50,959 nt of DNA from a virus (Duplodnaviria > Caudoviricetes), in IMG/VR virus record IMGVR_UViG_3300037484_000760, positions 1 through 50,959 of that record, one strand, 5' to 3'. Numbering within the stretch: the first letter of the stretch is position 1; each line of letters begins with the position of its first letter. The position numbers were made by a program, and so were the translations under genes. Positions 6,665 to 50,959 of this stretch are shown in pieces. The notes under the pieces are model-generated. The model was not told the origin of the DNA and searched no databases. It saw only the letters and a list, made by a program, of their open reading frames with translations.

Positions 6665-6691
6665 CACTTGGGGTGGAAATTAACCCAAGTG
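6665..6691 (-). promoter_or_regulatory. 27-bp dispersed palindromic site #1
   Basis: CACTTGGGGTGGAAATTAACCCAAGTG, intergenic before the small terminase. Confidence 0.85.
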
Positions 6692-6707
6692 ATTGTTGGA
6701 GGACCTC

Positions 6708-7214
6708 ATGGCAGGAGTAGCTGGAAGAAGCGGAAGACGGCCGGTCTTCGATAGACAGTACCAATTACAGAATATGTCCCAGATTCATCACGAGATAGTT
6801 CGCCTTCTCCTGCTTGGTTGGGGCAATAAGGAGATCGCTGAGCACTTTGGTGTGACTGAGGCAATGGTCTGCTATACGGCTAACTCCCGCATTGTGCAGG
6901 ACAAGCTGGCTATGCTCCGACAAGTGCGTGATGCGGAGGCTATAGACGTGGCTCAGCGCATCAAAGAGCTAGCCCCCGAGTGCATCGACACCCTGGATGA
7001 GATTCGAAGGAACGATAACGCCGGCTTTGCCATACGGGCCAAGGTTTCGATGGACCTTCTTGACCGTGCCGGCTACGCTGCCCCCAAAGTTATTCGAGCA
7101 GAAGGAGTTGTCGCCCACCTTACCATGGACGACATAGCGGAGATCAAGAGAAGGGCAATAACTCAAGGGATCGAGTCAGGAGTAATAATAGATGCAGTCG
7201 CTGAGTGCGCTTGA
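6708..7214 (+). CDS. Terminase small subunit (HTH)
   Basis: MAGVAGRSGRRP N-terminus, HTH (GWGNKEIAEHFGVTEAMV), 'LLDRAGY' motif, directly upstream of TerL. Confidence 0.75.
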   Translation: MAGVAGRSGRRPVFDRQYQLQNMSQIHHEIVRLLLLGWGNKEIAEHFGVTEAMVCYTANSRIVQDKLAMLRQVRDAEAIDVAQRIKELAPECIDTLDEIRRNDNAGFAIRAKVSMDLLDRAGYAAPKVIRAEGVVAHLTMDDIAEIKRRAITQGIESGVIIDAVAECA

Positions 7215-8700
7215 CATACGATCAAACTCCGACGTCAAAGATATTTTGGCCCAATGCTACGTCAACGACGCAGTTTTCGCCAAAACTATCTTTCCCGAGA
7301 GGTTTAATTTGCCCTTCTCTTCGATCCATCAGACCGTTTTCGAGGCTATGGAGAGTGGAAGGCAGAAGATAGTCATTGCCGCGCCTAGGGGTTCCGGAAA
7401 GACGACCATTTCCAACCTACTTTTTCCGGCAAAGAAGATTCTCTTCCGAGATAAGCGCTTTATAGTGCCTATTTCCAACACTGCGACGCAGGCAACTATG
7501 CAGTCAGAGAACTTGAAGGCCGAACTCTGTTCGAATACGCTGGTTCGGTCCTTCTTCGGGGACGTAAAAAGCAGTGAAACCTTCTCTAAGGATATGTGGG
7601 TGGCTTATGCGGACCCAGAAGCAGGCGATCCGGGGGTAGTTATTCTCCCTCGAGGCGCAGGACAGCAGATTCGTGGCTTCAACTGGCGTGGATTCCGCCC
7701 TGATCTCATCATAGGGGACGATCTCGAGAACGCGGAAGATGTGAGGAACCCTGATACTAGGAAGAAGATCAAGGAATGGTTCTTCGCTGACGTTATGAAC
7801 TCAGTTGACCGCAGCAAGAACTGGCAGATTATAGTTGTCGGTACAGTTCTGCATGAGGATAGCTTGCTGGAGAACCTACTTAATGACCCGACTTGGTTCC
7901 CAATCCGCTTGGAGATATGCGATGATAATTATCATAGTAATTGGCCTGACTTACTTAGCGACTCTGCTGTTAGAGAGTTGGCTAACATGTATCGAGCGCA
8001 CGGGTTGCTTGACGTCTTCTATCGAGAGTATAGAAATATGCCCATCTCGACCGAGGACGCTACCTTTAGGAAGGAGTACTTTCGGTATTATAAGGAGGTC
8101 GATGAAGACTTTTTGCGGGAGAAGCGGGGACTTGAGACAGTTGTCCTGCTCGACCCAGCGAAGACAGTCAAGATACACTCCGCGGAGAGTGGGATTATAA
8201 CTCTTGGGCTTGATAGGAAGCAGGGCCGCATCTATGTCCGAAACGTCATTGCGGAGAAGTTGTACCCTGACCAGATATATAAGGCGGTTCTTGATCAAGC
8301 AGTTCAGTTTAATGCAACTGCTATTGGGATTGAGGTGACTTCGCTTAACGAATTCATCACTTACCCCTTCAAGAACGAGATGGTTAAAAGAGGGAAGATA
8401 TATCCGCTTATCGAACTGAAGGCTGTAGGGAAGAAGGAGGAACGTATAGCTTCAATGGTTCCCTTCTACCGCGGCGGCCACGTTATACATAATGAAGAGT
8501 GTGCTGGAGTTCTCGAAGGCCAGCTCCTTTCCTTCCCGCGCTGTACTCGATTCGACGCTATTGATGCCTTAGCTTACTTCGTCAAACTCTTTGACATTGG
8601 AGATAGGTTCTTCGAAAGCGAGAAGGCTGACGAAGATGAGTATGCTGACCTGGCTGAGATGGAACCTTTGCCTCTTATGGAACCTTGGAGGATTTGCTAA
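7192..8700 (+). CDS. terL: Terminase large subunit
   Basis: Walker A APRGSGKTT, Walker B RPDLIIGDD, VGT motif, RNase H-like nuclease (LDPA...FDAIDALAY). Confidence 0.95.
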   Translation: MQSLSALDIRSNSDVKDILAQCYVNDAVFAKTIFPERFNLPFSSIHQTVFEAMESGRQKIVIAAPRGSGKTTISNLLFPAKKILFRDKRFIVPISNTATQATMQSENLKAELCSNTLVRSFFGDVKSSETFSKDMWVAYADPEAGDPGVVILPRGAGQQIRGFNWRGFRPDLIIGDDLENAEDVRNPDTRKKIKEWFFADVMNSVDRSKNWQIIVVGTVLHEDSLLENLLNDPTWFPIRLEICDDNYHSNWPDLLSDSAVRELANMYRAHGLLDVFYREYRNMPISTEDATFRKEYFRYYKEVDEDFLREKRGLETVVLLDPAKTVKIHSAESGIITLGLDRKQGRIYVRNVIAEKLYPDQIYKAVLDQAVQFNATAIGIEVTSLNEFITYPFKNEMVKRGKIYPLIELKAVGKKEERIASMVPFYRGGHVIHNEECAGVLEGQLLSFPRCTRFDAIDALAYFVKLFDIGDRFFESEKADEDEYADLAEMEPLPLMEPWRIC

Positions 8701-9788: not shown

Positions 9789-11723
9789 ATGGACTACGTT
9801 GCTGGAGCACAAGGGGAAGCTGGTGGAAAGGTTCTTGATTGGCGTGATAAGACGTATGACTACACTTATCCCTACGGGCTTGATCTGAAGCCTGGTTCAG
9901 CCTTGAGTAAGAAGATATGCAAAGCTGTCTATGAGCGCGCTGAGCTCTCTTACCGCAGGATGAGTAGTCGTCATAAGTCGTGGCGTCAGATAGATCGCGT
10001 CCTTACTGCATACATCCCTTTGGATGAGGAAGAGAAGAAGGTTAAGAGTAAGGACTATCGCAAGCCGGTGACGATAGTTGTTCCGTACACCTATGCGACC
10101 CTTGAGACGCTTCTGACTTATCTGGTGGACACGTTCTTGTCGGGGGAAATCTTCCGTTACGAAGGGACTGGGCCAGAGGATCAGATTGGTGGGGTCCTCT
10201 TGGGCAAGCTCATCAGTCAGCAGTGTGAGAAGGCCAAAGTCGCCCTTAGTCTCCACACTATGTTCAGGGATGCGTTGGCTTACAGCGTTGGCTCGGTTGC
10301 CTGTAGCTGGGAGCGGAAACTCGGCAAGCGTACCATCAGGCAGGACACTGGCTTCTATGGCCTCTTGGGTAAGTTTATGCCTACTGGGAGAAGGCGTCAA
10401 GAGGTTGAGACCGTCCTCTATGAAGGCAATACTCTTAAGAATATAGATCCGTACTGTTATCTGCCGGACCCATCAGTATCCGTCCACCAACTCCAGGACG
10501 GAGAGTTCTCAGGCTGGCTTGAGCGGACGAACTTGATGAACCTTCTCAGTACGGAAATGACCAGCGATGATATCTTCAACGTGCGTTACCTCAAGCATTG
10601 TGGTGGGAAAACTTCCCTGATCCAGGGCGACCAGAGCCTCCGCGGTGAGCGCTTCAATATGGAAAAAGATGACTTCACTTCCAGCGTCAAGTGCCCTATT
10701 GACGTCATCTACATGTACGCCAAGATCATTCCCAAAGAAATGGGTCTCGGCAACTCGGAGTATCCTGAGAAGTGGTACTTCGCTGTAGCCGGAGATCAGG
10801 TCGTCATCGAGTGCCGCCCAATAGGACTTAATCATGGCCTCTATCCAATGGCATCAGCCGCGCCAGACTTTGATGGATACTCTGCTACTCCAACCAGTCG
10901 GCTTGAGATACTGTATGGTCTACAGACAACCCTCGACTGGCTCTTCTCCAGTCATACTGCTAACGTACGGAAAGCCATTAATGACATGCTGATTGTTGAT
11001 CCGTATCTGATTAATATGGACGACTTGAAGGACCCTGAGCCGGGGAAGATGATAAGGCTGCGTAGGGCTGGTTGGGGTAAGGGTGTGGAAAATGCTGTTA
11101 AGCAGCTCGCAGTTCAGGACGTAACCAAGCAGCACATTGGTGACTCTTCGTATATCATCGAGCTGATGCAGCGGGTCAGTGCGGCGAACGACTCTATGAT
11201 GGGTATGACGAGGCAGAGCAGTGAGCGGATTACAGCTACGGAGATACAAGGAGACCGCTCCAGCGCTGTTAACCGTCTGAAGAGAATGGCCAAGGTCATC
11301 AACATGCAAGCGATGTATGATATCTCTTACATGTTCGCTGCCCATACGCAACAGCTGCTCTCCAATGATACCTACGTCAAAGTGGTTGGAGACTGGCCAG
11401 ACACTTTAAAAGATATCTATCAGCCCGGCCAGAGCGTTTCCGTCTCCCCTTTCGACCTCATGGTAGAGTATGACGTCAAACTGCGGGACATTGACCAGGA
11501 AGTGGGTGGCAGGGAATGGATTGACCTTTACCAAATCTTGGCCCAAAATCCCCTGGTCGGCCAGCAGTTCGACATGGTCAGAATATTCAAGCACGTAGCC
11601 ACTCTCATGGGGGCTAAGGACGTCAACTCCTTTGTCATGCAGGGAGGTAATGTCAACCCTCAGATGATGGATGACGAAACTGTGATGAAGCAGGCAGATG
11701 CGGGAAACATAAGACCGCTGTAA
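9789..11723 (+). CDS. Portal protein
   Basis: 644 aa after terL; 'ITATEI' motif typical of podovirus portals. Confidence 0.85.
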   Translation: MDYVAGAQGEAGGKVLDWRDKTYDYTYPYGLDLKPGSALSKKICKAVYERAELSYRRMSSRHKSWRQIDRVLTAYIPLDEEEKKVKSKDYRKPVTIVVPYTYATLETLLTYLVDTFLSGEIFRYEGTGPEDQIGGVLLGKLISQQCEKAKVALSLHTMFRDALAYSVGSVACSWERKLGKRTIRQDTGFYGLLGKFMPTGRRRQEVETVLYEGNTLKNIDPYCYLPDPSVSVHQLQDGEFSGWLERTNLMNLLSTEMTSDDIFNVRYLKHCGGKTSLIQGDQSLRGERFNMEKDDFTSSVKCPIDVIYMYAKIIPKEMGLGNSEYPEKWYFAVAGDQVVIECRPIGLNHGLYPMASAAPDFDGYSATPTSRLEILYGLQTTLDWLFSSHTANVRKAINDMLIVDPYLINMDDLKDPEPGKMIRLRRAGWGKGVENAVKQLAVQDVTKQHIGDSSYIIELMQRVSAANDSMMGMTRQSSERITATEIQGDRSSAVNRLKRMAKVINMQAMYDISYMFAAHTQQLLSNDTYVKVVGDWPDTLKDIYQPGQSVSVSPFDLMVEYDVKLRDIDQEVGGREWIDLYQILAQNPLVGQQFDMVRIFKHVATLMGAKDVNSFVMQGGNVNPQMMDDETVMKQADAGNIRPL

Positions 11724-11725
11724 TC

Positions 11726-11752
11726 CACTTAGGTTAATATTCACCCGGAGTG
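11726..11752 (+). promoter_or_regulatory. 27-bp dispersed palindromic site #2
   Basis: CACTTAGGTTAATATTCACCCGGAGTG; its GGAG doubles as the RBS of the next gene. Confidence 0.85.
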
Positions 11753-13580: not shown

Positions 13581-13742
13581 ATGATAACCCCTGAACAGAT
13601 CAAAGAAATGCTCCAGTCCCTCGAGACGCAGGAGGCTGAACTCCTGGCGAAGCTCAACCAAGTGGCTGGAGCCAAAGATACCCTTAACCATCTTCTCTCC
13701 CTTGCCCAGGGAGACTCTCTGAAGGAGAACTCAAATGTCTGA
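13581..13742 (+). CDS. 53-aa coiled-coil protein (not in the ORF track)
   Basis: MITPEQIKEMLQSLETQEAELLAKLNQVAGAKDTLNHLL...; fills the intergenic gap. Confidence 0.6.
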   Translation: MITPEQIKEMLQSLETQEAELLAKLNQVAGAKDTLNHLLSLAQGDSLKENSNV

Positions 13743-15063
13743 TATGGTTGCCTTTCCTGGTGTGCGTGGCTCTGGTTCGTGGTCGACAGACGAACGGCCG
13801 AAGAGCTATCGTGAAATGATTCTTTACCTCTACCCCAACGGGGATATGCCCCTGACTGCACTCATGTCCATGCTTGCGTCGGAAAGCGTAGATGATCCTG
13901 AGTATCACTGGTGGACCAAGACAATCCCGTCGCAGCGCACCGCCATTACCGAGGGGGCTGTCTACACAGACACCGGCCTCTCTGCCGCTGCTCAGTGGGA
14001 CTATGACACTGCTGGCAACAACGACTTCGGCGCCGGCGAAACTGTCTATGTCGCCCTTGGGACCTTGGTCGAAGCGAAGAAGTATCGCGCTGGTCATATC
14101 GTCCTTCTGCGTGACGCCTCAGATCCGTCCCGGGACACTCGTTGCCGCGTGACAGCAGTTGACACTTCCACCTTCTACCTCACCTGCTACGTGCTCAAGG
14201 AGTACAAGGGTAAGTCGACCGAGACCGTTGCCCTCAACAACACCTACGACACCGTCCTGATCATCGGTAACTCCAACGCTGAGAACGCGGTTCGCCCAGC
14301 TTCCATCTCCTACGATCCGGTGAAGTACTACAACTTCACCCAGATCTTCCGCACCCCTCTGGAGATTTCCCGTACTGCGAAGAAGACCCGTCTGCGGACC
14401 GGTGACGCTTACAAGCGGCTAAAGAGAGAGGCCCTCGAGATCCACGGCATGGAAAGAGAGAAGGCCTACTTCTGGGGCGTCCCTACTGAGATCACCGATG
14501 CTACGACTGGCCTGCCTCACCGTACCACTGATGGCCTGATCAACTTCATCACCACCAACGCGCCGGGTAACGTTCTCGACTTCACCACTGACCACTCCGG
14601 TGAGACTTGGATCGGCGCGGGCGAGAAGTGGCTTGATACCTCTCTCGAAGTTATCTTCCGCTATGGTTCCCGCGACAAGCTGGCCATGGTCGGCTCCGGG
14701 GCGCTGCTCGGGATCAACGAGTTGGCGAAGGCCTCTGGCTGGCAGTCCCTGACCCCCAACACCGCTCAGTACGGCCTCAAGGTTGTCTCCTGGGTAACTC
14801 CCTTCGGCGTTCTGCATCTCAAGACTGCGCCTCTGTTCAGCTTTGAAGTAACTGACCGTCACCGTATGGTTATTCTCGACACCAAGAACCTCCGTTCCCG
14901 CTACGTTGACCAGACCATGTTCAAGGGAGATTCGTCCATTACTGAATCCATCGGCACCGGTCGCGATGGTCAGGCGGAAGAGTTTCTTACCGAGGATGGG
15001 CTGGAGATTCACCACCCTGAAACCTTCGGCATCTTCAACAATGTCGGAGTTGACGCAACCTAA
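13735..15063 (+). CDS. Major capsid protein (SU10/DUF5309-like HK97 fold)
   Basis: AAGGAG RBS; strong codon bias; 'NFTQIFRTPLEISRT', 'TDGLINFI' and 'TPFG' motifs; followed by a hairpin. Confidence 0.85.
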   Translation: MSDMVAFPGVRGSGSWSTDERPKSYREMILYLYPNGDMPLTALMSMLASESVDDPEYHWWTKTIPSQRTAITEGAVYTDTGLSAAAQWDYDTAGNNDFGAGETVYVALGTLVEAKKYRAGHIVLLRDASDPSRDTRCRVTAVDTSTFYLTCYVLKEYKGKSTETVALNNTYDTVLIIGNSNAENAVRPASISYDPVKYYNFTQIFRTPLEISRTAKKTRLRTGDAYKRLKREALEIHGMEREKAYFWGVPTEITDATTGLPHRTTDGLINFITTNAPGNVLDFTTDHSGETWIGAGEKWLDTSLEVIFRYGSRDKLAMVGSGALLGINELAKASGWQSLTPNTAQYGLKVVSWVTPFGVLHLKTAPLFSFEVTDRHRMVILDTKNLRSRYVDQTMFKGDSSITESIGTGRDGQAEEFLTEDGLEIHHPETFGIFNNVGVDAT

Positions 15064-15082: not shown

Positions 15083-15109
15083 GAGTGGCCTCAGAAATGG
15101 GGCCACTTT
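15083..15109 (+). terminator. Hairpin after the capsid gene (GAAA tetraloop)
   Basis: GAGTGGCCTCA-GAAA-TGGGGCCACTT, weak U-tract; overlaps site #3. Confidence 0.6.
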
Positions 15110-15130
15110 GGTTAATTTTCAACCGGAGTG
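15104..15130 (+). promoter_or_regulatory. 27-bp dispersed palindromic site #3
   Basis: CACTTTGGTTAATTTTCAACCGGAGTG; its GGAG doubles as an RBS. Confidence 0.85.
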
Positions 15131-16266: not shown

Positions 16267-17578
16267 GTATCCTTTCGCTCTTAAGGGCCATATAACTAAA
16301 GGTATAGTGCCTACTCCTGGTAGTGATCAGGAGGGGCTCTATACCTGCACGAACGCTAGGCCATTCAGCAGGGGGATGGAATTCGTTGCGCCGTACGCAT
16401 CTTACCTTGACCTCGAAGTGGTCTTCCCTTTCTCGCAACTCCTAGTCACGGATAAGTATAAGTATGTGGCCTACTCAACTGGGATATATGAAGTAGTTAA
16501 CAACGCCCTGGTGAGTCGGGCCAGCTTAGCCCTATCCAGCCACGTTGATCTGGCGGACTTCAAAGATTCTGTGGCGCTGACTGGAGGCAACAAAACGCTG
16601 ATTCGTAATGCCGCTGGAGCGCTGGTTGAAGTAGATAATGTCCCCAAGGCGAATGCTTGCTGCAGCTTTGAAGGGCTGCTAGTCCTGGGCAACATTGCTA
16701 GTTGGACTCAATCAGCAGATGTTGGCGCCGACTCCATCGCATGGGCAAGTCGACCAAGAAGTGCTGACTTTGTCCTTTCAGTGGCCAACGTAGCAACAGG
16801 TGCTGGGTTCTCTCGTCTCTTCTGTGGGACAGTTTTGAAAGTACTGAATGTGGATAAGAAGTTAGTCGTCTTTGGGACGAAGGGTATTGCAGTACTGGAC
16901 CTGCAGTCTGCACCCCTTCCAGCTTTTGGCGTCTCAAAGACTTATAAGGCTTCTATCACTTATAAGGAGAGTATTGTTCAATCTGACTCACAGGTTCTAT
17001 TTGTCGACTCTCTTGGCTTTCTCTGTTCTTTCTCTGTCGAGAAAGGACCGGTAGTATTAGGCTTCGAACGGTTCTTTTCTGGTCCTGTAGTTGGCTCTTA
17101 CAACGAGCAGGATCAAGAAGTGTATATGAGTACTGAGACTGATGCGCTGGTTATTACATCTAGTGGAGTTGGCCGCCTAGCTCAGGCTATCACCTCTTGT
17201 GGTTGGGACGGCTCAGCGTTGTGCGTAGTTGCCTCTACCCCGTCTTCCGAAAACCTCGAACTGATCATAGATAACTGCAACATGGCTATTGGCGCGAACA
17301 AGACGCTCTACGCCCAAGAGGTGACTGGCGAAACTGATGGACGGTTCGAAGTAGGCGCCTTCTTCAAGCGGGATGCATCCTCTTCCTACCTCAACGCTGG
17401 CTACTCTTCCTGTGGCCCCGGCGGAGTTGGGACGAAGATTGTTGAAGGCTCTTCCTTCCGTCCCAAGATACGCGTCATTGAGCCGGAGCATGCCAAAGTG
17501 TTCGACTACAATCTGCGCTGGAAACTAACTGACAAAAGGAGTGTAAGAGGCTACTATGATAACAAGACTTCTGCCTGA
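16259..17578 (+). CDS. Tail nozzle / tubular protein B-like (beta-propeller)
   Basis: Beta-rich 439 aa in the podovirus nozzle position. Confidence 0.65.
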   Translation: MREYPFALKGHITKGIVPTPGSDQEGLYTCTNARPFSRGMEFVAPYASYLDLEVVFPFSQLLVTDKYKYVAYSTGIYEVVNNALVSRASLALSSHVDLADFKDSVALTGGNKTLIRNAAGALVEVDNVPKANACCSFEGLLVLGNIASWTQSADVGADSIAWASRPRSADFVLSVANVATGAGFSRLFCGTVLKVLNVDKKLVVFGTKGIAVLDLQSAPLPAFGVSKTYKASITYKESIVQSDSQVLFVDSLGFLCSFSVEKGPVVLGFERFFSGPVVGSYNEQDQEVYMSTETDALVITSSGVGRLAQAITSCGWDGSALCVVASTPSSENLELIIDNCNMAIGANKTLYAQEVTGETDGRFEVGAFFKRDASSSYLNAGYSSCGPGGVGTKIVEGSSFRPKIRVIEPEHAKVFDYNLRWKLTDKRSVRGYYDNKTSA

Positions 17579-17996
17579 AAACGTAACTGAGAATTGGGAG
17601 ATAGTGAAGTTTGCTATCAAAGGATCGCTTCCACCCTTTGCAAAGGATTCGCCTGATAAGATGAATCGCATCTTGGAGTCGATTGTTCTTGGGCATCTCG
17701 AGGTGTGGGTCTTCTATGTACCAACTCCCCCTTCGATACACATCAAGAGTATTGTTACCACAAGTATTATTACGGACCAAGAGAGCCAGACCAAGAATCT
17801 TTTGATCTATTCCATTTACAACTTTGACCGCGGTTCTATTGAAGAGTGGGAAGAGGGGCTAAGCGGCCTTCGTGAGTATGCCCGGGCGAACGGCTGCGCT
17901 GGTATCACTGGCTTCACCGTTGACCCGCATTTGATCAAGTTTGTAGAACATGCTGGTGGGTCCTCAGATGTGCGGTTCGTAAAGATACCAGTCTAA
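17556..17996 (+). CDS. Tail assembly protein, possibly GNAT-like fold
   Basis: 'LREYARANGCAGI' motif; lies between nozzle and ejection genes. Confidence 0.5.
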   Translation: MITRLLPENVTENWEIVKFAIKGSLPPFAKDSPDKMNRILESIVLGHLEVWVFYVPTPPSIHIKSIVTTSIITDQESQTKNLLIYSIYNFDRGSIEEWEEGLSGLREYARANGCAGITGFTVDPHLIKFVEHAGGSSDVRFVKIPV

Positions 17997-18023
17997 CACT
18001 TAGGTTAATTATCACCCCAAGGG
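17997..18023 (+). promoter_or_regulatory. 27-bp dispersed palindromic site #4
   Basis: CACTTAGGTTAATTATCACCCCAAGGG. Confidence 0.85.
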
Positions 18024-18035: not shown

Positions 18036-18971
18036 ATGGGAAGTGGCGGCGGTGGGAGCTCAGGCAAAATTGACTATCCAGAGTACTTAAAGACTATTCA
18101 TAGCGCTTTTCTAGATAGTGATGGAACGGACACACTTGAGTTCAGCCTAGTAGATTTGTTGAATGATGCTTATGATACGAATCCTATGGAGGATGCGTCC
18201 CTTTCGATCTACAGTGGGAGGGCTGTTATAGATACAAGTGGCAATGAGAGTATGACAACTGTGGCTACTTCCATAGCTGCCGTGCTCTCTGCGCTTAATG
18301 CCTTTGATGTACAGGCTGCTTATAGCTCGCTCTTGACGCAAGTCGCCAGTGATGTGGATGCAGTTATTCTAGATGACTCAGTTATTTCAGCTGCTAGCGC
18401 ATCCTTCGCCACAGTCTTGGAGCCAGACACAGCTGCGGAGAAGGCTAAGTATGACGCTGACGCAGCTCTGTTGGGGATCAGCTTTACGAATACTTATACC
18501 CTCGGTAAGAGCTTTATCGACGCCAGGAAGACGGAACGGGTAGCGCTGTACGATGCTGATCTCCGTGCCAGGATGTATCTGCAAAGGAATGATATAATCA
18601 ATCTGACCACTCGTGAGCTGCTGGCGAAGCAGATGGTTAAGCTCCAGATGACGAAAGAATTCTACTCCTTCGCAGTGGAAGGGGTCAAGCTAAAAATCCT
18701 CAACGAGAGGGAATATGCAGAGCAGAATATGGGTTACCTCAACAAGAAGGGAGTGTGGCGCTTCGAGGCTATGCAGAATGGCTTTAATGCGATCGCAGCT
18801 ATTGGCGGCGGTACAGCTATTGCCAACTCCCCGAAGATGAGTGCAACTCAGGCCACAGTCAGTGGGGCTTTCTCTGGAGCCGCTATTGGTGCTCAGATGG
18901 GCGGCGGTGCTTACGGGACAGCCATAGGTGCGGTTGTAGGAGGAGTTGCCGGCTACCTTGGTTCGAGGTAA
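18036..18971 (+). CDS. Ejection/internal virion protein, paralog 1
   Basis: MGSGGGGSSG N-terminus and C-terminal glycine zipper (GTAIGAVVGGVAG). Confidence 0.7.
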   Translation: MGSGGGGSSGKIDYPEYLKTIHSAFLDSDGTDTLEFSLVDLLNDAYDTNPMEDASLSIYSGRAVIDTSGNESMTTVATSIAAVLSALNAFDVQAAYSSLLTQVASDVDAVILDDSVISAASASFATVLEPDTAAEKAKYDADAALLGISFTNTYTLGKSFIDARKTERVALYDADLRARMYLQRNDIINLTTRELLAKQMVKLQMTKEFYSFAVEGVKLKILNEREYAEQNMGYLNKKGVWRFEAMQNGFNAIAAIGGGTAIANSPKMSATQATVSGAFSGAAIGAQMGGGAYGTAIGAVVGGVAGYLGSR

Positions 18972-21746: not shown

Positions 21747-21773
21747 CACTTCGGGTGGAAATTAACCTAAGAG
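21747..21773 (-). promoter_or_regulatory. 27-bp dispersed palindromic site #5
   Basis: CACTTCGGGTGGAAATTAACCTAAGAG. Confidence 0.85.
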
Positions 21774-21789: not shown

Positions 21790-24700
21790 ATGACAACGAA
21801 GTTTGAAATGCCCGATGGGACGACATATGAGGTGGAGGATAATGAAGTTGACGACAAACTCCTGGCAGAGATGCAGGACTTGCATGACAAGCACTCGGGA
21901 GAGGCCGGCTTTGGTACGAAGGTAGGTGGGTTCGTCAAGGGGCTGGCTAAGGGGGCTGTGCAGGGCATATCAGGGATTCCTAAAGCAGCTGCAATCTTCG
22001 GCGCTGCGGATGTGAACAAGGCGCGGGCTGACGTTGGCTTGCCGCCCAAGGCAGCAAAAGACTCCCCTATATATAAATTCGGAGAATGGCTGGACGAGAC
22101 AGTTGCCCCACGCATAGATGCCCGGGTCCGTGGCGATTTCATGACGCAGGTGGGAGCGGGCCTCGGACAGGTTGCTACCTCTATAGCTACTGGCGTCGTC
22201 GCTGGTGGGGCCACCAAAGTTGGTCAACTCGCAACTGCGGCCGTCCCAGCTATGGGCATGCAGATGAGTGAGGACTATGGGAGGGCCGTAGAGAAGGGCG
22301 CTACTGAGGAGGAGGCCGTCACCGCGGGTATGTGGGGAGCTGCTTGGGGCGCTACAGATGTGCTGCCCTTCGAGAGGGCGTTCTCCATCTTGCAGAAGGC
22401 CAGCCCTGGGTGGAAAGGCTTCGTCAAAGATGTAGGTGGACAGTTCTTCCTCGAGGGGGGTCAGGAGGGGATGCAGCAAGTTCTCTCTAATGCGACAGCT
22501 AAGCTGACTTATGACGAGCAGCAGTCGTTGATGGAAGATGTGTTGCCTAGTGCTAGCGTTGGCGGAGTTGTTGGTGCCCTCGCTGGGACCATCCTCAACG
22601 TGCTTGGCGCAAAGGGGAAGGTTAAAGTTGGGAAGGACAAGACTGGGAGTGGTACTCCGGGGAATGAGACTATTCCGTCGGCCAGTGCTGGTGATGAATC
22701 TGCTGCGGCTAAGATCATAGCTGATCTCAAGGCCCAGGGGATCGGTGCTACTGCCACAGAGAATACTACGGTTGTAGTTCCGGCGAGCAAGAAGTTGGAG
22801 CCCACCACTGTTGATTCTATCCAAGCAAATATGGATGGAACTTTTACTCCGAGCCAAGCGTTTGCGAAGAAGCTGCTGGAGGCTGGAGCGAGTGAGAGCG
22901 AAGTTCACGCTGTGTTGAGTTTGACCAATGCTCATGCAAGGTATCGAGGGGAGGACCTCGACACGTTTGTGGAGCAGAGAGTTGCCGATGTGCGAAAGGG
23001 TGGGAAGGGTGAGCTGAATCAGGCCCAAGTACTTGACCTGAAAAAGCGGCTATGGGATAAGCGGATTGAGAAAGAAGGTGGAATAGCCGCTGGAGAACAT
23101 TATTCTTATGATAGCCGCGGCAATCCAATAGACCAGTATGGTCGACAACTTGAAACAGTACAAGAGAATATTGCAAGAGTCGAGGAAGAGCAGAAAGGAT
23201 GGGAAAGGATTGGTAGTTCAATCGCTGTTGTTGATATAGAAGATATAATAACAGGCGATACTATAATACCTAAAGGCACTCGCATTACATACGAACATAT
23301 ACAGCAGATGGAAGAGATGGGATATGAGCCAAACTCCCCGTATATGAAAAGATCTTTTGCTCCTGCTGGACCGAGAAGTTTGAATCAGGCCGAAGTAATT
23401 GATATGGCTTCTCGTGGGGTACCTAACAGTATTATTAACGGCTTTAAATTAGCTAACCGGGAAAAAGGTAGGGTTAGTTACTTGGCTATGTCTCAGTCAA
23501 TTACGCCAGAAGAAATGCAATCTATTCCACCGGCTACCTGGAAGGCTATAGAGGAGACGACGGGCTTAAGTAAACGTATAGAAGAAGAACGACAAAGGAA
23601 AACAAAGAGCGGTGATACACCAACTATTACCGAACAGAAGGTTGATGTTATAAAAAGGAATGCTGTAGTAGACTACGTTGTACAAACCTTTGGGAGAGAC
23701 ACGCTGAATCAGGCTGAACAAGAAGCAGAAGTTACCACAACAAAGCTAACCCGTGGGGAGAATGCTTTCTTCAGTCAGATATTTAGTAATGAGGCAGACT
23801 TACAGGAATTAAAGGAGGCTGTTCCTAGTATTCAATTCGTTAACGGTGAGGTAAGCATTGATCCAAAGGACAATATAGCTCTAGCTAACTATGTAGATGA
23901 CGTTGTACGTTTGAATGAAGGAGATAGATTACCTCCAAGTTTTCACTCAGGCCTGTTCACTACCAAGCTTTTTCAGAACGTCAAGGGAGCTGTCTCATTC
24001 CTCGAAGACGGACGCGCCGTCATCAGCATCATGCAGAAGGCCGACGCATCTACCATTCTTCATGAGATGAGTCATATCTTCAGACGGTCCCTTCTCGACG
24101 AAGAGGCAGCAGCCGCCAACGAGTGGGTCGGCGCTGGCTCCAACGAATGGACAACTGAACAGGAGGAGTTGTGGGCCCGCTCATTCGAACGTTATCTGCG
24201 TCGCGGCAAAGCTCCCAACGCCTACCTCAAGGAAGTCTTCGAGAAGATGCGGACTTGGTTGAGGCGCATCTATAAGACCCTCAAAGGTAGCCCCATCGAC
24301 TACCCGCTTGATCCTAAGGTCGTGGCGCTATTCGACAAGATCTTGACGCCGGCAGAGCTGCCGAGCCAGAAGAAAGCTTTCGAAATGCCTTTCGCTGCGT
24401 GGCAGAAGGTTTATGGTGAAGACGAAGCGGCCATGTACGGGCTGACGGATAAGAGTGTGGCTGTTAGAGAGCCTTCTCGCTTCTCAACGCTGGTCAACGA
24501 CGTTAACAACAAAGCTGCCCGTGGTATAGTCCTCGGGAGGTATCTAACCAAGGCTGAGACTGAGGCACAACTTGCTATAGTCACAGCTCCGGAGTACCTC
24601 CAGCAGCCTCTCGCTGCTCAGGACCTCGACAGCTATATCATTAGAGTGCTGAACCTCTTCGCTGTACGGGCCAACGCTGCGTTTCATGAGAACTCCTCCA

Positions 24701-30202: not shown

Positions 30203-30429
30203 CGGGAAACCTCCGTGCAGGATAGCATGTATTCGTCGATGCGGTTGAAGGTAATCCAGGGAGCAGAGAGAAAAGAGGGCTCGTGTCCCCAGTGATAAAA
30301 CCAGATAGAGCCAGGTTCAACCTCTGGGCGATAGTTTGGATTGAAGCGCTTATACGTCCAATCCTTCTCAAGCATAAGCTCTCTACCATACTTGTCTCGC
30401 TGACGCAAGCAGCCTATTTGGGACCTCAT
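30199..30429 (-). CDS. Hypothetical protein
   Basis: AGGAGG RBS before the ATG at 30429. Confidence 0.45.
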   Translation of the reverse strand: MRSQIGCLRQRDKYGRELMLEKDWTYKRFNPNYRPEVEPGSIWFYHWGHEPSFLSAPWITFNRIDEYMLSCTEVSR

Positions 30430-32869: not shown

Positions 32870-33006
32870 ATGAGTCTCCTGTGGATGAAGTCTGAGATGA
32901 GGTCCTCTATTTCTATGTTCGTATACCAGATACGACACGGAGCACAATCGGTGTGCTTCTTGTTGTAGTGGAGCCGACCACAGACAGGACAGGTTATAGC
33001 TATCAT
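32866..33006 (-). CDS. 46-aa zinc-finger microprotein (not in the ORF track)
   Basis: MIAITCPVCG...DCAPCR; AAGGAGG RBS; ATGA overlap with polA. Confidence 0.6.
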   Translation of the reverse strand: MIAITCPVCGRLHYNKKHTDCAPCRIWYTNIEIEDLISDFIHRRLI

Positions 33007-33014: not shown

Positions 33015-33041
33015 TCCTTAGGGTGAAATTTAACCGAAGTG
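33015..33041 (-). promoter_or_regulatory. 27-bp dispersed palindromic site #8
   Basis: TCCTTAGGGTGAAATTTAACCGAAGTG; the deviating end forms an RBS. Confidence 0.8.
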
Positions 33042-37061: not shown

Positions 37062-37088
37062 CACTTCGGTTATTTTTTAACCCAAGCG
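37062..37088 (+). promoter_or_regulatory. 27-bp dispersed palindromic site #9
   Basis: CACTTCGGTTATTTTTTAACCCAAGCG; overlaps the Sak4 stop codon. Confidence 0.8.
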
Positions 37089-41717: not shown

Positions 41718-41744
41718 CACTTGGGTTGGAAATTAACCTAAGTG
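41718..41744 (-). promoter_or_regulatory. 27-bp dispersed palindromic site #10
   Basis: CACTTGGGTTGGAAATTAACCTAAGTG. Confidence 0.87.
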
Positions 41745-41778
41745 GTAGGGCAGCGTTAGTTGCCACCCTACCACTTAG
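41738..41778 (-). terminator. 13-bp-stem hairpin downstream of 41804..42193
   Basis: CTAAGTGGTAGGG...CCCTACCACTTAG; overlaps site #10. Confidence 0.6.
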
Positions 41779-44859: not shown

Positions 44860-44991
44860 TCACTTAGGTTGAAAATTAACGCAAGTGGGACACCGGCAAT
44901 CTTGGCAATGCTCTCCTTCTGGATACTCCATAGGACATTTGCCGTCACAGATGAATTCGTTAATGAGAAGGCACAAGAAGCAGGGTTTCAT
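44860..44991 (-). CDS. 43-aa microprotein with 8 Cys (not in the ORF track)
   Basis: MKPCFLCLLINEFICDGKCPMEYPEGEHCQDCRCPTCVNFQPK; ends inside site #11. Confidence 0.5.
   Translation of the reverse strand: MKPCFLCLLINEFICDGKCPMEYPEGEHCQDCRCPTCVNFQPK
44861..44887 (-). promoter_or_regulatory. 27-bp dispersed palindromic site #11
   Basis: CACTTAGGTTGAAAATTAACGCAAGTG. Confidence 0.85.
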
Positions 44992-45289: not shown

Positions 45290-45802
45290 CTATCCCTCCA
45301 CTTCAACTATGTGAATCCCAGCTTCGTCGAGAATCAGATGACTGTCCCTGCTGACGTAGCGGCCAGAGTTCTTAAACACAACTTCAACAATCCCTGCGTT
45401 GATTATGAGCTTACTGCAAATGGCACAAGGGAGATCAGTCACGTAGATGGTCGCTCCTTCTATGCAAGCCCCAGAGCGGGCCGCCTGAGCTATGGCATTC
45501 ATCTCGGCATGAGCTGAGCGGCAGGTTTCGTATCGTTCGCCGGCCTTCACCTTATGAGTCTCTCTATAGCACTCTCCCAGCTCAGCGCAATCTTTCATCC
45601 TTCTCGGCGCGCCGTTATATCCAGTGCTCAGTATTGTCTTATCTCTCACCACCAGCGCCCCGTGCCGCGCCCTTCGACACGTGCTCCTCGTCGCTACCTC
45701 CAGCGTCAACTTCAAGAAGTACTCTGTCCAACTAGGACGCGGCCTAGCCACAGCTGTCTGCAACGTTCCGTTGCCTCCTCCATCTTCATCAATATTAGGC
45801 AT
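45290..45802 (-). CDS. dCMP deaminase
   Basis: RSTC, GYNG, HAEMNA and PCAIC motifs. Confidence 0.93.
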   Translation of the reverse strand: MPNIDEDGGGNGTLQTAVARPRPSWTEYFLKLTLEVATRSTCRRARHGALVVRDKTILSTGYNGAPRRMKDCAELGECYRETHKVKAGERYETCRSAHAEMNAIAQAARSGACIEGATIYVTDLPCAICSKLIINAGIVEVVFKNSGRYVSRDSHLILDEAGIHIVEVEG

Positions 45803-46088
45803 CTGCGTCCTCCTTATACTGAATAATAGCTAACGCACTATAGTTAATCGCATCCATCAGCGTATCAAGCACACTCTCATCCTTCACCTTCATCTCCCCT
45901 TGCTTGACAAAGTTCTTAAGCCGGTGATACTTATCACCAAGCCTAACTATAATCCCCTTCCAGCCGAAGTCATCGAAGTTAGACATAGCATTATCGTCCC
46001 CTGCATAGTCGTGCCCCTTCTTCTCAGCAATCGCCAAGCACGCGTCAAATATACTCCGCATCGCCGCTAGCTTCTCCTCCTGAGTCAT
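45795..46088 (-). CDS. DUF1599-like nucleotide-modification-associated alpha-helical protein
   Basis: KKGHDY...VRLGDKYHRL...ESVLDTLMDAINY. Confidence 0.8.
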   Translation of the reverse strand: MTQEEKLAAMRSIFDACLAIAEKKGHDYAGDDNAMSNFDDFGWKGIIVRLGDKYHRLKNFVKQGEMKVKDESVLDTLMDAINYSALAIIQYKEDADA

Positions 46089-46608: not shown

Positions 46609-46635
46609 CACTTCGGTTAATTTTCAACCAAAGTG
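46609..46635 (+). promoter_or_regulatory. 27-bp dispersed palindromic site #12
   Basis: CACTTCGGTTAATTTTCAACCAAAGTG; overlaps the stop of 46617..47516. Confidence 0.87.
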
Positions 46636-47516
46636 GGGGCGTTCTTAGTAATGGCCTCAAAGGCCTGTTTCATCTGTTCTCTTTCCTCTGCATCAGCCGC
46701 AGCTCGCCTTTGATTCAACTCAGCAATCGACAATGTTTCATCCGATACATAGCCATCATCCCCTGTCTTTTTAATGGTCATAGTTGTCTCAGGCGCAGGC
46801 TCGACATACCCACTTGGCTCTGGCTCACTCTCTTCCTTATACTCCCTATCCCGATCATGCTGCTGAGAGAGCAGATCAAACGCCTCAGCACTCTGAGTTT
46901 GACTTGGCACAGCCTTAGCTGCCTGTGCTTCGTCTCTCTCCCTAGTAAGAGTCAGAAAGGCTTCTCTCCAATGAGGCGGAGGACTATAGCTACTCCCCAT
47001 CTCTCCTCTCATCACAGCCTCAAACACCGGCCTGGCCCCATCCAAGTTCTTCTGCTTCTCTTCAGCCGACACATACTTCTGCGGCATCGCAGCTATCTGC
47101 TGTGCAGCCATCTCAATAGCATGTTTCTTCCCTATATCCCCTTTAGTCGCCCTCGATCCCCTCTCCATCCCGAAGTCCCGCTCCAAGCTCTCCTCCGCTA
47201 CACTCGTGATCAGCCGCTTATTCCACCCAGGCCCACCATTCACCGGCTTGAACTGACTCATAGAGAAGCCATTCTCCCTGAGCCAATCAATAGCGTCAGT
47301 CAAGAACTCAAACCGCTCCAAGTGCTCCGGGTCCCCAGCTTCAATGCAATCCAGCATGTGATCAATACAATGGTGAACCAGCTCTCCATACTGCGCACTC
47401 TTCAGCACCCCACAGCCAGCCAAATAGCTCGCTACGGCCGCCAACTCCCTCACATCCACATACGCTTGTACATTAAAGCTAGTTTTCTGCTGCGTAGTTC
47501 TATTATTCCTTCTCAT
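46617..47516 (-). CDS. Hypothetical early protein (first gene after a strong promoter, next to the origin-like element)
   Basis: AGGAGGT RBS; 299 aa. Confidence 0.75.
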   Translation of the reverse strand: MRRNNRTTQQKTSFNVQAYVDVRELAAVASYLAGCGVLKSAQYGELVHHCIDHMLDCIEAGDPEHLERFEFLTDAIDWLRENGFSMSQFKPVNGGPGWNKRLITSVAEESLERDFGMERGSRATKGDIGKKHAIEMAAQQIAAMPQKYVSAEEKQKNLDGARPVFEAVMRGEMGSSYSPPPHWREAFLTLTRERDEAQAAKAVPSQTQSAEAFDLLSQQHDRDREYKEESEPEPSGYVEPAPETTMTIKKTGDDGYVSDETLSIAELNQRRAAADAEEREQMKQAFEAITKNAPTLVEN

Positions 47517-47999: not shown

Positions 48000-48026
48000 C
48001 ACTTGGGTTAATTATCATCCCAAGCG
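48000..48026 (+). promoter_or_regulatory. 27-bp dispersed palindromic site #13
   Basis: CACTTGGGTTAATTATCATCCCAAGCG. Confidence 0.83.
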
Positions 48027-48829: not shown

Positions 48830-48838
48830 ATTATACCA
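48830..48838 (-). promoter_or_regulatory. Extended -10 promoter element
   Basis: TGGTATAAT on -; no clear -35. Confidence 0.5.
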
Positions 48839-48968: not shown

Positions 48969-48995
48969 CGCTTTGGTTAATATTAATCCGAAGTG
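48969..48995 (+). promoter_or_regulatory. 27-bp dispersed palindromic site #14
   Basis: CGCTTTGGTTAATATTAATCCGAAGTG, between the divergent promoters. Confidence 0.78.
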
Positions 48996-49045
48996 GGCCG
49001 CCCTGACTGCGTTTAATTGTGAGGCGAGCCGATGGTAATTATGTG

Positions 49046-49074
49046 TTGACAAGGAATGGGGCGCATGATATAGG
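49046..49074 (+). promoter_or_regulatory. Sigma70-type promoter for the + strand arm
   Basis: TTGACA-17 bp-TATAGG with TG extension. Confidence 0.6.
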
Positions 49075-49121
49075 TAATGGCATATTGACTAACATTGGTT
49101 CCAACGAATAGGAGGCCTCTG

Positions 49122-49460
49122 ATGAGAGTACTTGTGATAGCAGTTGCCGTGACCCTGGGCTTGGCGCTGACCAGCTTCTTAGCCGACGCTGTGTCGGACT
49201 TCCCTTATGATAATGCCCAGATCTTTGCGCCCAATGGGAAGTTGACGGAGAGTATAACTTCGGCTACCACGCGCAATTTGACCAAGACCCGTGTCTGGCG
49301 CGTGACGTCTACCACGGCCTGGAAGAGGATGCACACGGCAACTTCAGCCAAGGATAGCACCTATGTTGATGTACCTGCCGGCATCACAGAGTTGGGCGTC
49401 AGTTCCATCACCCCCTTCCTTCACATGACCAGTGTTACTGGCACGTTAGAGAGGCAATAA
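49122..49460 (+). CDS. Small secreted-type protein
   Basis: AGGAGG RBS; MRVLVIAVAVTLGLALTSFLADA signal-like N-terminus; Thr-rich beta domain. Confidence 0.7.
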   Translation: MRVLVIAVAVTLGLALTSFLADAVSDFPYDNAQIFAPNGKLTESITSATTRNLTKTRVWRVTSTTAWKRMHTATSAKDSTYVDVPAGITELGVSSITPFLHMTSVTGTLERQ

Positions 49461-49462
49461 AT

Positions 49463-50959
49463 ATGCTTCGGTTAATTATCACCCTAAGTGTTTGTCTCCT
49501 CACTCTTAGCCAAAGCGCCTTTGCTGGCACAATCGCTTCGGATATCTTCAGAGGGAGGCTAGGGGTCTTCACGAACATGACTGGGGTTTCAGTTAAGGCT
49601 GCTACGCTCAGAGGGCAGCTGACTGGGAATGTAACTGGGAATGTAACTGGTAACGTAACTGGAGACCTTATTGGTAATGTGACGATATTAGGCTCAGTTA
49701 AAGATATCCGCTTCTCCGACGAATTTGCCTCATACAACGCAGCTATTACTGCAATTGGTAGTACTCCCGCCTTACTTGTTGTCAACACTCCTAACTTCCC
49801 TGTCACAGCTAATGCAACGGCTCCAGTGACGCTGGCAACCTCAGTTCTTTGGCCCGGAAGCTTCTCTCATTCAACTTACTCCATTACGTTTAACGGCCCT
49901 GTATCTTTCCCCGATAGCCAGGTGTTCACCGGGACGGGGACGGTGGTATTCGGCAGGAAATCTACAAGGGCGCTTAATCCCTTATGGTGGGGTGTTAACG
50001 CTAGCGGGACCAACACCACAACGGAGATGCAGAGTTGCTTTAATTCTGCCTTTGCGAGTGAGGTCAAGCTGGTTGAGTTCGGTCCGGGCCTGTTCAGAAT
50101 TGATGGAACTGTAAATATAACCGACGTAATTGATATTGAGGGCGTATCTACGGGAACAGCAAGAGCAACTAAAACTAACGCAATGGGATCAACTGTTTTC
50201 TTCACAGATAGTGGAACCGGGAATATGTTCTATGTATATTCTGCCACTGATCGAATCAGTGGCTTCACGATGCGGAACGTGTCCTTACTTGGGTCCGACT
50301 CAATGCTTGTAGATACTAATGCTGTTACTAAAACTGCAATATATTTCAAAGATACATTAAGTGAAACCATTATAGACAATGTTAATATTACTGGATTTCA
50401 TGTGTCTGCGCTTTACTTGGACTCAGTATGGGATGCGACTATCCAGAACAGCCGCATTATGTATTCAGGTACAGCAACTGTCCCAGCTTTAGCTTTTGTT
50501 GCTACTGCTGACAATACAAATGCAATTAAATTCACCAACAACCATGTGGAACATTGTCCTTATATCCTTCAATTAGCAAATGGGGCAAGGCAGAATAAAT
50601 TTATAGGTAACAAATTTGAAATAGGTAACCGGACCCCAACAGGATCTCCGTTTAATATAAGTTCTGATTCTGTGTCTAACCTTTTTGTCGGCAATCAGTT
50701 TGTTTATACAACGCACTCGCCATGGTTATTTACTATTGCTAATAAACATACTGTGATTAATGGCAATGTCTTTGAGGGCGCAAATTTCGCTAAATGGATT
50801 TATCATACTGGGGGCGGTTTGGTTTTAACTAACAACTCTTTTTTATGGTCAGACGGCGCAACTTACCCGTTTGTTTTTAACGATAATGTCATTATGACGG
50901 GCAACACTGTTGATCTTCTTCCTCATAGTGGAGATCGTTATTTTGTCCAAATGCATTCC
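49463..50959 (+). CDS. Tailspike/tail-fibre protein with signal peptide and beta-helix body, 3'-truncated (variant A; not in the ORF track)
   Basis: Open frame from ATG 49463 to the window end; MLRLIITLSVCLLTLSQSAFA; TGNV repeats; 'NPLWWG..GT..TTEMQ', 'FGPGLFRI' and N-rich beta-helix repeats. Confidence 0.8.
   Translation, partial: MLRLIITLSVCLLTLSQSAFAGTIASDIFRGRLGVFTNMTGVSVKAATLRGQLTGNVTGNVTGNVTGDLIGNVTILGSVKDIRFSDEFASYNAAITAIGSTPALLVVNTPNFPVTANATAPVTLATSVLWPGSFSHSTYSITFNGPVSFPDSQVFTGTGTVVFGRKSTRALNPLWWGVNASGTNTTTEMQSCFNSAFASEVKLVEFGPGLFRIDGTVNITDVIDIEGVSTGTARATKTNAMGSTVFFTDSGTGNMFYVYSATDRISGFTMRNVSLLGSDSMLVDTNAVTKTAIYFKDTLSETIIDNVNITGFHVSALYLDSVWDATIQNSRIMYSGTATVPALAFVATADNTNAIKFTNNHVEHCPYILQLANGARQNKFIGNKFEIGNRTPTGSPFNISSDSVSNLFVGNQFVYTTHSPWLFTIANKHTVINGNVFEGANFAKWIYHTGGGLVLTNNSFLWSDGATYPFVFNDNVIMTGNTVDLLPHSGDRYFVQMHS
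49464..49490 (+). promoter_or_regulatory. 27-bp dispersed palindromic site #15 (overlaps the start codon and signal peptide)
   Basis: TGCTTCGGTTAATTATCACCCTAAGTG. Confidence 0.83.
49622..49681 (+). repeat. 12-bp tandem coding repeat (TGNV/TGDL/IGNV x5)
   Basis: ACTGGGAATGTA ACTGGGAATGTA ACTGGTAACGTA ACTGGAGACCTT ATTGGTAATGTG. Confidence 0.8.
49770..49896 (+). repeat. 127-bp exact repeat, copy 2
   Basis: Identical to 1..127. Confidence 0.97.

Follow-up and report, generated by a model that had tools for sequence, protein, structure and literature searches.

ParB-family proteins such as ParB, Noc and KorB load at palindromic DNA sites, close on cytidine triphosphate (CTP) and slide along the DNA. 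Noc, a paralogue of ParB, has many dispersed palindromic sites. For KorB of plasmid RK2, a CTPase clamp of the ParB family that acts at OB operators, passages of PMC11790492 describe sliding over distances of up to ~1.5 kb, by which it reaches promoters. Fusions of the ParB-CTPase fold to an N6_N4 methyltransferase are enriched in phages and prophages, with a role given as unknown and "perhaps anti-defense" in passages of a survey (PMC12704722). Here, we describe fifteen dispersed 27-bp quasi-palindromic sites, together with a candidate protein to read them, in a window that comprises one complete IMG/VR virus record (IMGVR_UViG_3300037484_000760; 50,959 bases, CheckV 100%, without end repeats), the source of which is an uncultivated lytic phage of ~51 kb. 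We propose, with a probability of roughly 0.55, that the sites serve as parS-like docking places for an orphan ParB-methyltransferase dimer encoded by the phage itself, whose helix-turn-helix (HTH) segments would read the inner half-sites.

The locus resembles ParABS partition systems in combining a palindromic cis site with a protein in which a ParB N-domain with nucleotide-binding boxes is followed by a ParB-type HTH, and which in its predicted dimer has two N-domain/HTH "legs". It differs from ParB-parS in that no ParA was found, a methyltransferase replaces the C-terminal dimerisation domain, the sites are 25-27 bp long and spread genome-wide (8-16 per ~45-50 kb) rather than clustered, and a lytic phage has nothing to partition. 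The site sequence also differs from the canonical parS consensus. Noc (PDB 7ol9, 7nfu, 7ng0) is the closest solved relative of the N-terminal half by both sequence profile and fold, but its role in cell division is to anchor chromosomal DNA at the membrane, whereas here the protein is from a phage and carries a fused methyltransferase. The stoperators of mycobacteriophage L5 likewise place many copies of one protein-binding site across a phage genome; each of them is an asymmetric site that follows the direction of transcription and is recognised by the prophage repressor, whereas the sites described here are palindromic and orientation-free, and no integrase or repressor was found among the window proteins scanned.

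KorB loads at several dispersed palindromes on one replicon, and its sites near promoters would fit sites 11 and 13 of the window (Table 1). It acts, however, as a repressor in concert with KorA and IncC and has no enzymatic domain, and its similarity to the candidate protein is limited to the N-domain (8qa8, E 3.4e-5); no KorA-like partner is known for the window, where no search aimed at one was made. The methyltransferase fusions of PMC12704722 have the same domain architecture as the protein described here, and the survey passages name no DNA sites for them. Start-associated inverted repeats with function unknown have been reported in actinobacteriophages of cluster EG (18 bp, 8-10 copies) and cluster O (17 bp) in passages of PMC7302621. 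Like the sites described here, these are dispersed and private to their group; they occupy short gaps between genes, 14-22 bp ahead of the start codon. They are, however, shorter than 27 bp, the EG copies are confined to the right genome end, and those passages report neither even spacing nor intragenic copies.

A search of the window with the consensus CACTTNGGTTANNNNNCANCCNAAGTG, allowing at most 3 mismatches, returned 14 places (20 strand-matches) where 0.01 were expected, and the largest count in 100 dinucleotide shuffles was 1. The copy at 25658 has 4 mismatches to the consensus and was left out when a scoring matrix was built from the 14 other sites. Scanning the window with this matrix gave exactly 15 places of at least 8 bits, ranging from 26.5 to 42.8 bits, with nothing between 8 and 26.5; the copy at 25658 scored 26.5 bits although it was absent from the training set, while the best score in 20 shuffles was 17.3 bits. 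Together, these results bore out the fifteen coordinates listed by a first-pass annotation of the window, along with its list of gaps, and the matrix scan added no further equally scoring sites. The half-site CACTTnGG occurs 13 times in the window, 3 of them outside the sites.

The motif is a 27-bp palindrome that is not fully symmetric. It is unconstrained at positions 6 and 22, and a C occupies position 17 in one arm only (13/15 sites). Because of the asymmetry at position 17, each site has an orientation; nine sites are sense and six antisense with respect to transcription, in keeping with the independence from transcription direction that had been proposed. The central "loop" is conserved as strongly as the arms and is present in both orientations, and nothing is conserved in the flanks, where no conserved -35 element was seen.

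Single-strand hairpin energies of the sites range from -1.7 to -12.8 kcal/mol, with means of -6.8 for the sense and -5.7 for the antisense strand, and on the sense strand seven of the fifteen folds fall short of -5 kcal/mol. Pairing between positions 6 and 22 is possible in 5/15 sites, compared to a chance expectation of 37.5%. A stable stem with compensatory change and a U-tract, as in a terminator or structured RNA, was not found at the sites, and there was no strand bias; a terminator-like hairpin adjoins only site 3, directly upstream of it and after the capsid gene. Since primary sequence rather than pairing is conserved, the folds are weak and both orientations occur, these data point to double-stranded DNA that is read by a symmetric (dimeric) protein. 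At site 10, the left arm pairs with an additional half-site that resembles a right arm, giving a 17-pair hairpin (41738-41778, minus strand); it may be the remnant of a second site or a real terminator.

The sites had been described as a lattice with near-regular spacing, and we compared their spacing with random placement. The coefficient of variation (CV) of the gaps between the 15 sites is 0.44 for a linear and 0.54 for a circular molecule. Spacing was more even than chance under two nulls, uniform placement (P = 0.00095 linear, 0.0088 circular) and random choice among the 71 called gene starts (0/20,000 draws linear, P = 0.00065 circular). The ten gaps from 6665 to 44861, a sub-range picked after the fact, have a CV of 0.17. 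The term "lattice" captures this even spread but overstates it, as the spacing falls to 0.5-1.7 kb in the early control region. The earlier statement that most copies occupy tiny gaps at gene boundaries needs qualifying: 10/15 lie outside called genes, and a called start is found within 25 nt of 8/15. The intragenic copy at 25658 does lie near the midpoint between its neighbours, at 3911 and 3326 bp.

Table 1. Sites and genes of the window, and copies of the relatives' own palindromes inside long open reading frames (positions in the respective genome).
Feature	Position	Strand	Setting	Match to motif
Site 1	6665-6691		after small gene (stop 6664), before terS-like gene (start 6708)	0 mismatches on minus strand; 42.8 bits
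Site 2	11726-11752		after portal gene; right arm gives GGAG 4 nt before ATG 11757	1 mismatch; 39.5 bits
Site 3	15104-15130		after major capsid gene, directly behind G+C-rich terminator-like hairpin 15083-15108	
Site 4	17997-18023		between genes 17556-17996 and 18036-18971	
Site 5	21747-21773		in front of 2251-aa gene	
Site 6	25658-25684		within 2251-aa gene at codon ~1292, inside 2254-codon open frame	weakest
Site 7	28984-29010		last codons of DUF3987 primase/helicase gene; 16 nt before 46-aa gene	
Site 8	33015-33041		between RNase T-like exonuclease gene and UDG-PolA gene	
Site 9	37062-37088		overlaps stop of Sak4-like gene	most symmetric copy
Site 10	41718-41744		left arm also closes 17-pair hairpin with extra half-site 41771-41778	
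Site 11	44861-44887		41 bp upstream of sigma-70-like promoter 44820-44793 (minus strand)	
Site 12	46609-46635		overlaps stop of gene 46617-47516	0 mismatches
Site 13	48000-48026		424 bp upstream of best sigma-70-like promoter, 47576-47548 (minus strand)	
Site 14	48969-48995		divergent early/late control region	
Site 15	49464-49490		covers first codons of beta-helix tail-fibre-like frame starting 49463	
Candidate reader	33635-35038	-	467-aa fusion: ParB N-domain, ParB-type HTH, long helix, beta-class N6/N4 DNA methyltransferase	
terS-like gene	6693-7214	+	late arm	
Large terminase	7192-8700	+	late arm	
Portal	9789-11723	+	late arm	
Major capsid	13735-15063	+	late arm	
2251-aa gene	21790-28545	+	late arm	
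Early and replication block	48716-28827	-	dCMP deaminase, DUF1599 protein, ligase, exonuclease, Sak4-like ATPase, ParB-methyltransferase fusion, RNase T-like exonuclease, UDG-PolA fusion, DUF3987 primase/helicase	
Intragenic copy, window	25658		2254 codons	
Intragenic copy, G001	19137		1789 codons	
Intragenic copy, G002	21940		1684 codons	
Intragenic copy, G002	32725		628 codons	
Intragenic copy, G004	21445		495 codons	

A capsid-profile search of viral contigs yielded 174 relatives, of which 80 were kept. A near-identical phage carries the same sites and was the only match to an exact-pattern scan of viral contigs; in the near-identical relative L012, the copy at the place of site 14 is nearer to the consensus. 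More distant relatives (44-53% capsid identity) gave no match to the window matrix, and each has a private palindrome of the same build: the outer bases are conserved (often CTWTG...CAWAG), the inner half-site is specific to the lineage and the centre is rich in A+T. Six further whole genomes contain 13, 16, 15, 8, 8 and 9 copies of their own 21-27-bp palindrome, one of them (G001) with the 11+5+11 geometry of the window, and more than 30 partial loci likewise carry their own palindrome of this build. A palindrome-family detector found 6-14 members in the window and G001-G005, compared to 3-5 in shuffles. With arms of 8, the detector failed to recover the family of a Desulfofustis phage, which a matrix scan shows; single-linkage and a first arm-9 repeat clustering blew up in A+T- or G+C-rich genomes, and an exact 7-mer palindrome method missed the window's own family.

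The closest named phage, Desulfofustis phage LS06-2018-MD01, has 42% capsid identity to the window phage. Four of its nine sites are orthologous in place to sites 1, 4, 7 and 9 of the window, that is, before terS, between the homologues of the genes at 17556 and 18036, at the end of the primase gene and after Sak4, and the motif is unrelated in sequence to that of the window. With number, build, even spread and in part the positions kept while the sequences are private, the site system is old, has been kept in place and co-evolves with something phage-encoded. LexA, IHF and other host boxes were dropped as the identity of the sites, since the motif differs between related phages.

Some relatives show variations on this arrangement. 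The order hairpin, private palindrome, Shine-Dalgarno (SD) sequence and ATG follows the capsid gene in many of 41 listed loci, in several of which the left arm of the palindrome supplies the T-rich tail of a G+C-rich hairpin. Genome G001 (L096-L098) has two site pairs, 14334/14374 and 43315/43355, spaced exactly 40 bp from start to start, which could reflect cooperative double docking. Hybrid sites at 9214, 40176 and 45279 of G004 (L105-L107) combine the usual left half, TGTCAAT, with a right half of GGTTA type, which suggests a second specificity or a heterodimer. Vibrio phage VS-ABTNL-3 (L113) has a non-palindromic repeated word (AATTATACAAT...) at 15377, 32140, 39929 and 42206 that looks like a phage promoter, and three CAATCG-N6-CGATTG palindromes at 173, 23359 and 38800.

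Gaps between sites were more even than under uniform placement in all seven genomes, the window and the six relatives (per-genome P 0.008-0.14), and a Fisher combination of the seven P values gave 1.2e-5 for genomes that are related and hence not independent. Although ~90% of each genome is coding, 62 of the 84 sites lie outside called genes; a called start is located within 25 nt of 39 of them. Five copies in four genomes are inside long open reading frames (ORFs; 495-2254 codons). They divide otherwise long gaps at 0.48-0.73 of their length (P = 0.002 compared to uniform), and for two of the five the host gene is short, so that the position is partly forced. Such a distribution suggests that the DNA has to be covered along its length, and speaks against a tie to gene starts. 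Giant genes homologous to the 2251-aa gene also contain a site in relatives.

No repressor or recombinase that could explain the sites was evident to the first-pass annotation. A candidate protein is nonetheless encoded in the window, the ParB-HTH-methyltransferase fusion, and its recognition helix tracks the palindrome in relatives. The fusion matches the Pfam families ParB_N (E 5e-10) and N6_N4_Mtase (E 1.5e-15), with the methyltransferase part (residues 219-445, including DPPY and FxGSG) in place of the ParB C-terminal dimerisation domain. Sequence matches in the PDB are to ParB, Spo0J and Noc, with Noc the best (E 9.5e-19) and the HTH segment aligning weakly. An AlphaFold2 (AF2) model with a predicted local distance difference test (pLDDT) score of 84.7 places an HTH at helices 144-151 and 155-170, followed by a long helix (180-221) and the methyltransferase. 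In Foldseek searches, the N-terminal half aligned over 204-231 columns with C-terminally truncated ParB/Noc chains that include the DNA-binding domain, such as Noc 7nfu_A (227 columns) and the ParB-parS complex 6t1f_D (204 columns), and the C-terminal half matched CcrM, M.RsrI and N4-cytosine methyltransferases (N4CMT).

A homodimer model of the fusion scored 0.75, compared to 0.00 for the best control, passing a mark reached by 20/30 solved homo-pairs and 1/23 single chains. Three runs agreed in at least 65% of contacts, with a partner pLDDT of at least 75. The modelled interface is in the methyltransferase domain. Relatives of the beta-class methyltransferase domain are known dimers, and the homodimer pass may reflect likeness to these rather than the behaviour of this protein. 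As modelled, the fusion would have ParB topology with a different dimerisation module.

The fusion was found in 5/5 whole relatives searched and also in the Desulfofustis phage. Invariant in 23/23 homologues are R63/R64 of GGRR (Box II) and E95, L96, E98, N99 and R102 of ELxENxxR (Box III). The ParA model PF13614, the only one tried, gave 0 matches in the complete record, with a positive control in 14/14 genomes; lacking a ParA partner, the fusion is not a partition ParB. Matches that span the ParB N-domain plus HTH length were also seen in 14 Gordonia phage records (annotated "ParB-like nuclease domain protein") and in Leptospira, Listeria and Staphylococcus phages.

A search for homologues of the fusion reported 464 relatives; we collected 80 loci around such homologues and called the local palindrome family in them; motif classes were assigned by eye, before the HTH segments were displayed. 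At the start of the recognition helix, SSKS pairs with GTCCC (D, L181 and L187), xSH with GGTAA-type half-sites (six genomes), [S/K]RP with CTTnGGT (the window and L144/145) and small residues with GTTCA. These classes cut across kinship. D shares only 21-38% identity with L181/L187 in four proteins, yet has the same SSKS/GTCCC combination, whereas L184/L186, close kin of L181/L187 at 55-75% identity, differ from them in both helix residues and motifs; similarly, L131/L160 (His, GGTAA) are 63-74% identical to L133 (Pro, GTTCA).

Across 34 genomes, His or Arg at the column of R155 of the window fusion was accompanied by a GG-type inner half-site in 11/11 cases, compared to 3/23 for other residues (Fisher test 1.3e-6, kinship ignored). 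Among 1606 variable columns taken from five proteins, this one ranked second, behind another column of the fusion, at residue 127. Predictions made before looking at nine added loci held in 6/7 cases, with one of the six a duplicate genome. A partial Mantel test on a pre-chosen helix window gave r 0.29 (P 0.0002), and the recognition helix accounted for the top 5 of 424 windows in a sliding-window scan of the fusion. Two phages without a site family agree with the link between reader and sites: Kuura, in which no ParB-like ORF was found by motif, and VS-ABTNL-3, which has a ParB_N-methyltransferase without an evident HTH. TerS was also considered as a reader, and has a homologue in only 5 genomes, too few to inform.

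Several observations weigh against the fusion as the reader. Its match to Pfam HTH_ParB is below the cut-off (15.4 vs 22.6 bits, E 0.02). The prediction for L190 failed, and His/Arg occurs without GG in three genomes (L139, L155 and L116). The tree used for polyphyly of the helix classes was a quick, unfinished one. For the ParB protein, the scan-wide permutation P was 0.09-0.10, and windows of control proteins from the same genomes reached equal or higher partial correlations (PolA maximum 0.37; Sak4 0.35, P 0.037; primase 0.31; exonuclease 0.31), with the capsid protein at 0.60 (P 0.006) in a second genome set. The Mantel and sliding-window scans are non-specific and lend weak support. Microcystis phage Mel-JY34 encodes a ParB-HTH-methyltransferase (24% identity) with an HTH-like segment, and the palindrome-family search found no family above shuffles in it. 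The conserved span of 25-27 bp exceeds known ParB-family sites, and its outer arms are unexplained by an HTH dimer alone; as a speculation, they could be read by the methyltransferase domain. Finally, eight of the fifteen window sites abut a ribosome-binding site, which a role in transcription or translation would fit too.

The first-pass annotation had suggested dyad sites bound by a dimeric protein, with a positional role such as parS-like loading, compaction or packaging. The dyad and loading parts of this suggestion are the reading best supported here, by the conserved sequence, the freedom of orientation, the even spacing in seven genomes and the mid-gap intragenic copies; packaging or ejection checkpoints and matS-like compaction are without support. 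In the docking mechanism that we favour, a dimer joined through its methyltransferase domains would place two HTHs on the two inner half-sites (GGTTA in the window phage). On binding nucleotide, the N-domains may shut to form a clamp, which would move off the site and along the DNA, as for ParB, KorB and Noc. Clamp closure and sliding after docking are suggested by analogy with these proteins. Sites every ~3-5 kb, including copies in long genes, would allow a factor of limited travel to cover the whole genome. As the favoured downstream step, the clamp would keep the methyltransferase on phage DNA in cis, and with an attached methyltransferase the simplest purpose would be fast methylation of that DNA. 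In its strongest form, the fusion would be a nucleotide-gated sliding methyltransferase that loads only at its private palindromes and methylates over a few kb, a self-addressed epigenetic shield; we consider this possible but hold it only tentatively. KorB-like silencing is an alternative downstream role, as sites are dense in the early control region and lie upstream of two early promoters.

Promoters or operators for another factor form the main rival class to docking of the fusion. The sites might be operators or activator sites of a different phage-encoded dimeric regulator, like the conserved inverted repeats of phiC31 or the cluster O and EG repeats. The frequent proximity to called starts, in the window and over the seven genomes, would suit such a regulator, as would a site density that is highest in the divergent early/late control region and the presence of a site 41 and 424 bp upstream of two of the three best sigma-70-like early promoters. 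Several conserved small early proteins lack annotation, and the ParB covariation statistics are not exclusive. We nevertheless regard this explanation as unlikely, because no HTH or ribbon-helix-helix (RHH) regulator was found among 20 early/small proteins scanned, the annotated "transcriptional regulator" of the Desulfofustis phage has no homologue in the window, even spacing in seven genomes and mid-gap intragenic copies are unexpected of operators, and the top two of the 1606 motif-associated columns are both in the ParB fusion. Phage middle or late promoters, at which host RNA polymerase with a phage factor or an unrecognised phage polymerase would start inside the site, are quite unlikely. 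The sites are palindromic, their asymmetric centre does not follow the direction of the genes (9:6 in the window; also mixed for G005 and L085), there is no conserved -35 in the flanks, and neither an RNA polymerase nor a sigma factor was found among the scanned proteins. In three scans for sigma-70 promoters (-35/-10, 16-18 bp apart), none coincided with any site. Copies within long genes would be hard to explain, and a start after the centre would remove the GGAG used as SD in two sites. In its favour, each phage has its own highly conserved ~25-bp element, A+T-rich at the centre, which shortly precedes ribosome-binding sites and immediately follows the capsid-gene terminator; the late arm lacks standout sigma-70-like promoters (13 found vs 16.7 expected), and intergenic repeats of halovirus HF2 were shown to be promoters (PMC8707807). 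N4-like hairpin promoters with a virion RNA polymerase were rejected, as a DxDxD motif is absent from the 2251-aa protein and its PDB search gave no RNA polymerase. A Bacteroidota-type TAnnTTTG promoter, prompted by the flanks of L010, was also rejected: the window has strong SDs, and the pattern fails on the other arm.

Two further explanations dispense with a regulator. Intercistronic hairpins acting at the RNA level, through processing, mRNA stabilisation, termination or translational coupling by SD masking, would account for sites between a stop codon and an SD, for a right arm that in relatives often ends in AAGG, usable as an SD and complementary to the left arm, for the capsid-gene site joined to a terminator-like hairpin and for the slightly stronger mean sense folds. 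Against this stand the weak sense hairpins at 7/15 sites, the pairing of positions 6 and 22 in 5/15 sites and the absence of a U-tract; furthermore, with the conserved loop in both orientations the RNA would differ between sites, and cleavage or stalling within long genes such as the 2251-aa one would do damage, making the RNA explanation highly unlikely. Other positional roles at the DNA level, namely site-specific nicks, lagging-strand priming or loading of the DUF3987 helicase, and topological barriers, appear the least probable of those considered: neither covariation nor another link to these proteins was found (the maximum window r for the primase, 0.31, is not significant), and the mismatches between the arms are too many for a cruciform or hairpin to extrude, even if even spacing, irrelevance of orientation and intragenic copies are what such roles would produce and two conserved places flank replication genes (after primase, after Sak4). 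The sites may also resemble the nick consensus of LUZ24-type phages (LUZ24/tf) and the P4 alpha iterons.

What is new here is a proposed ParB-family protein/palindrome system with a fused methyltransferase, in a lytic phage and with even spacing genome-wide. A full-text literature search, covering titles, abstract starts and opened papers, found nothing linking a ParB-methyltransferase to dispersed palindromes. In a term search of the paper on the Desulfofustis phage (PMC10370329), "ParB" gave no match, and among 12 of 20 matching places those for "palindrom" and "inverted repeat" concerned CRISPR or general text, not a phage motif. ParB-fold/methyltransferase fusions are among the commonest ParB-like phage proteins, and the passages of the 2025 survey that cover them gave no function (PMC12704722). 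Were docking correct, the fusion would gain its first predicted DNA targets and a first recognition rule, in which His/Arg at the helix start corresponds to GG in the half-site. The geometry of even spacing with copies forced into genes would argue for action at a distance along DNA, and the CTP-clamp principle of ParB, Noc, KorB, VirB and BisD would extend to a DNA-modifying enzyme of a lytic virus. With a sliding methylase, rapid and selective marking of the phage genome in cis would become possible, a new genome-wide reach for such an enzyme. According to a 2026 paper (PMC13229309), a phage ParB homologue activates a thymine dioxygenase on double-stranded DNA, which provides a precedent for ParB modules serving DNA-modifying enzymes. 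Docking may also explain the function-less start-associated inverted repeats of other phage groups.

The window has a G+C content of ~50% and no tRNA genes. Early and replication genes are on the minus strand, from 48716 down to 28827, and late genes are on the plus strand. A megablast search found no close DNA relatives among deposited phages. No RNA data set was listed for the window, and one DNA run (Logan contigs) contains 0.66 of the sampled words. Each end of the record is crossed by an open frame, a 494-aa frame at 1-1487 and the beta-helix tail-fibre-like ORF at 49463-50959, and the two do not join in frame; although rated complete, the record apparently breaks within or next to a tail-fibre gene. 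The 2251-aa late protein, which probably belongs to the internal or ejection proteins of the virion, matches no Pfam family, and its sole family hits, to two PHROGs of unknown function, are weak. In the minus-strand block, the dCMP deaminase gene adjoins a DUF1599 "nucleotide modification associated" gene (45290-46088, minus strand), and PolA (30383-32947, minus strand) bears an N-terminal UDG-superfamily domain. Together, the deaminase/DUF1599 pair and UDG-PolA hint at non-canonical pyrimidines in the phage DNA.

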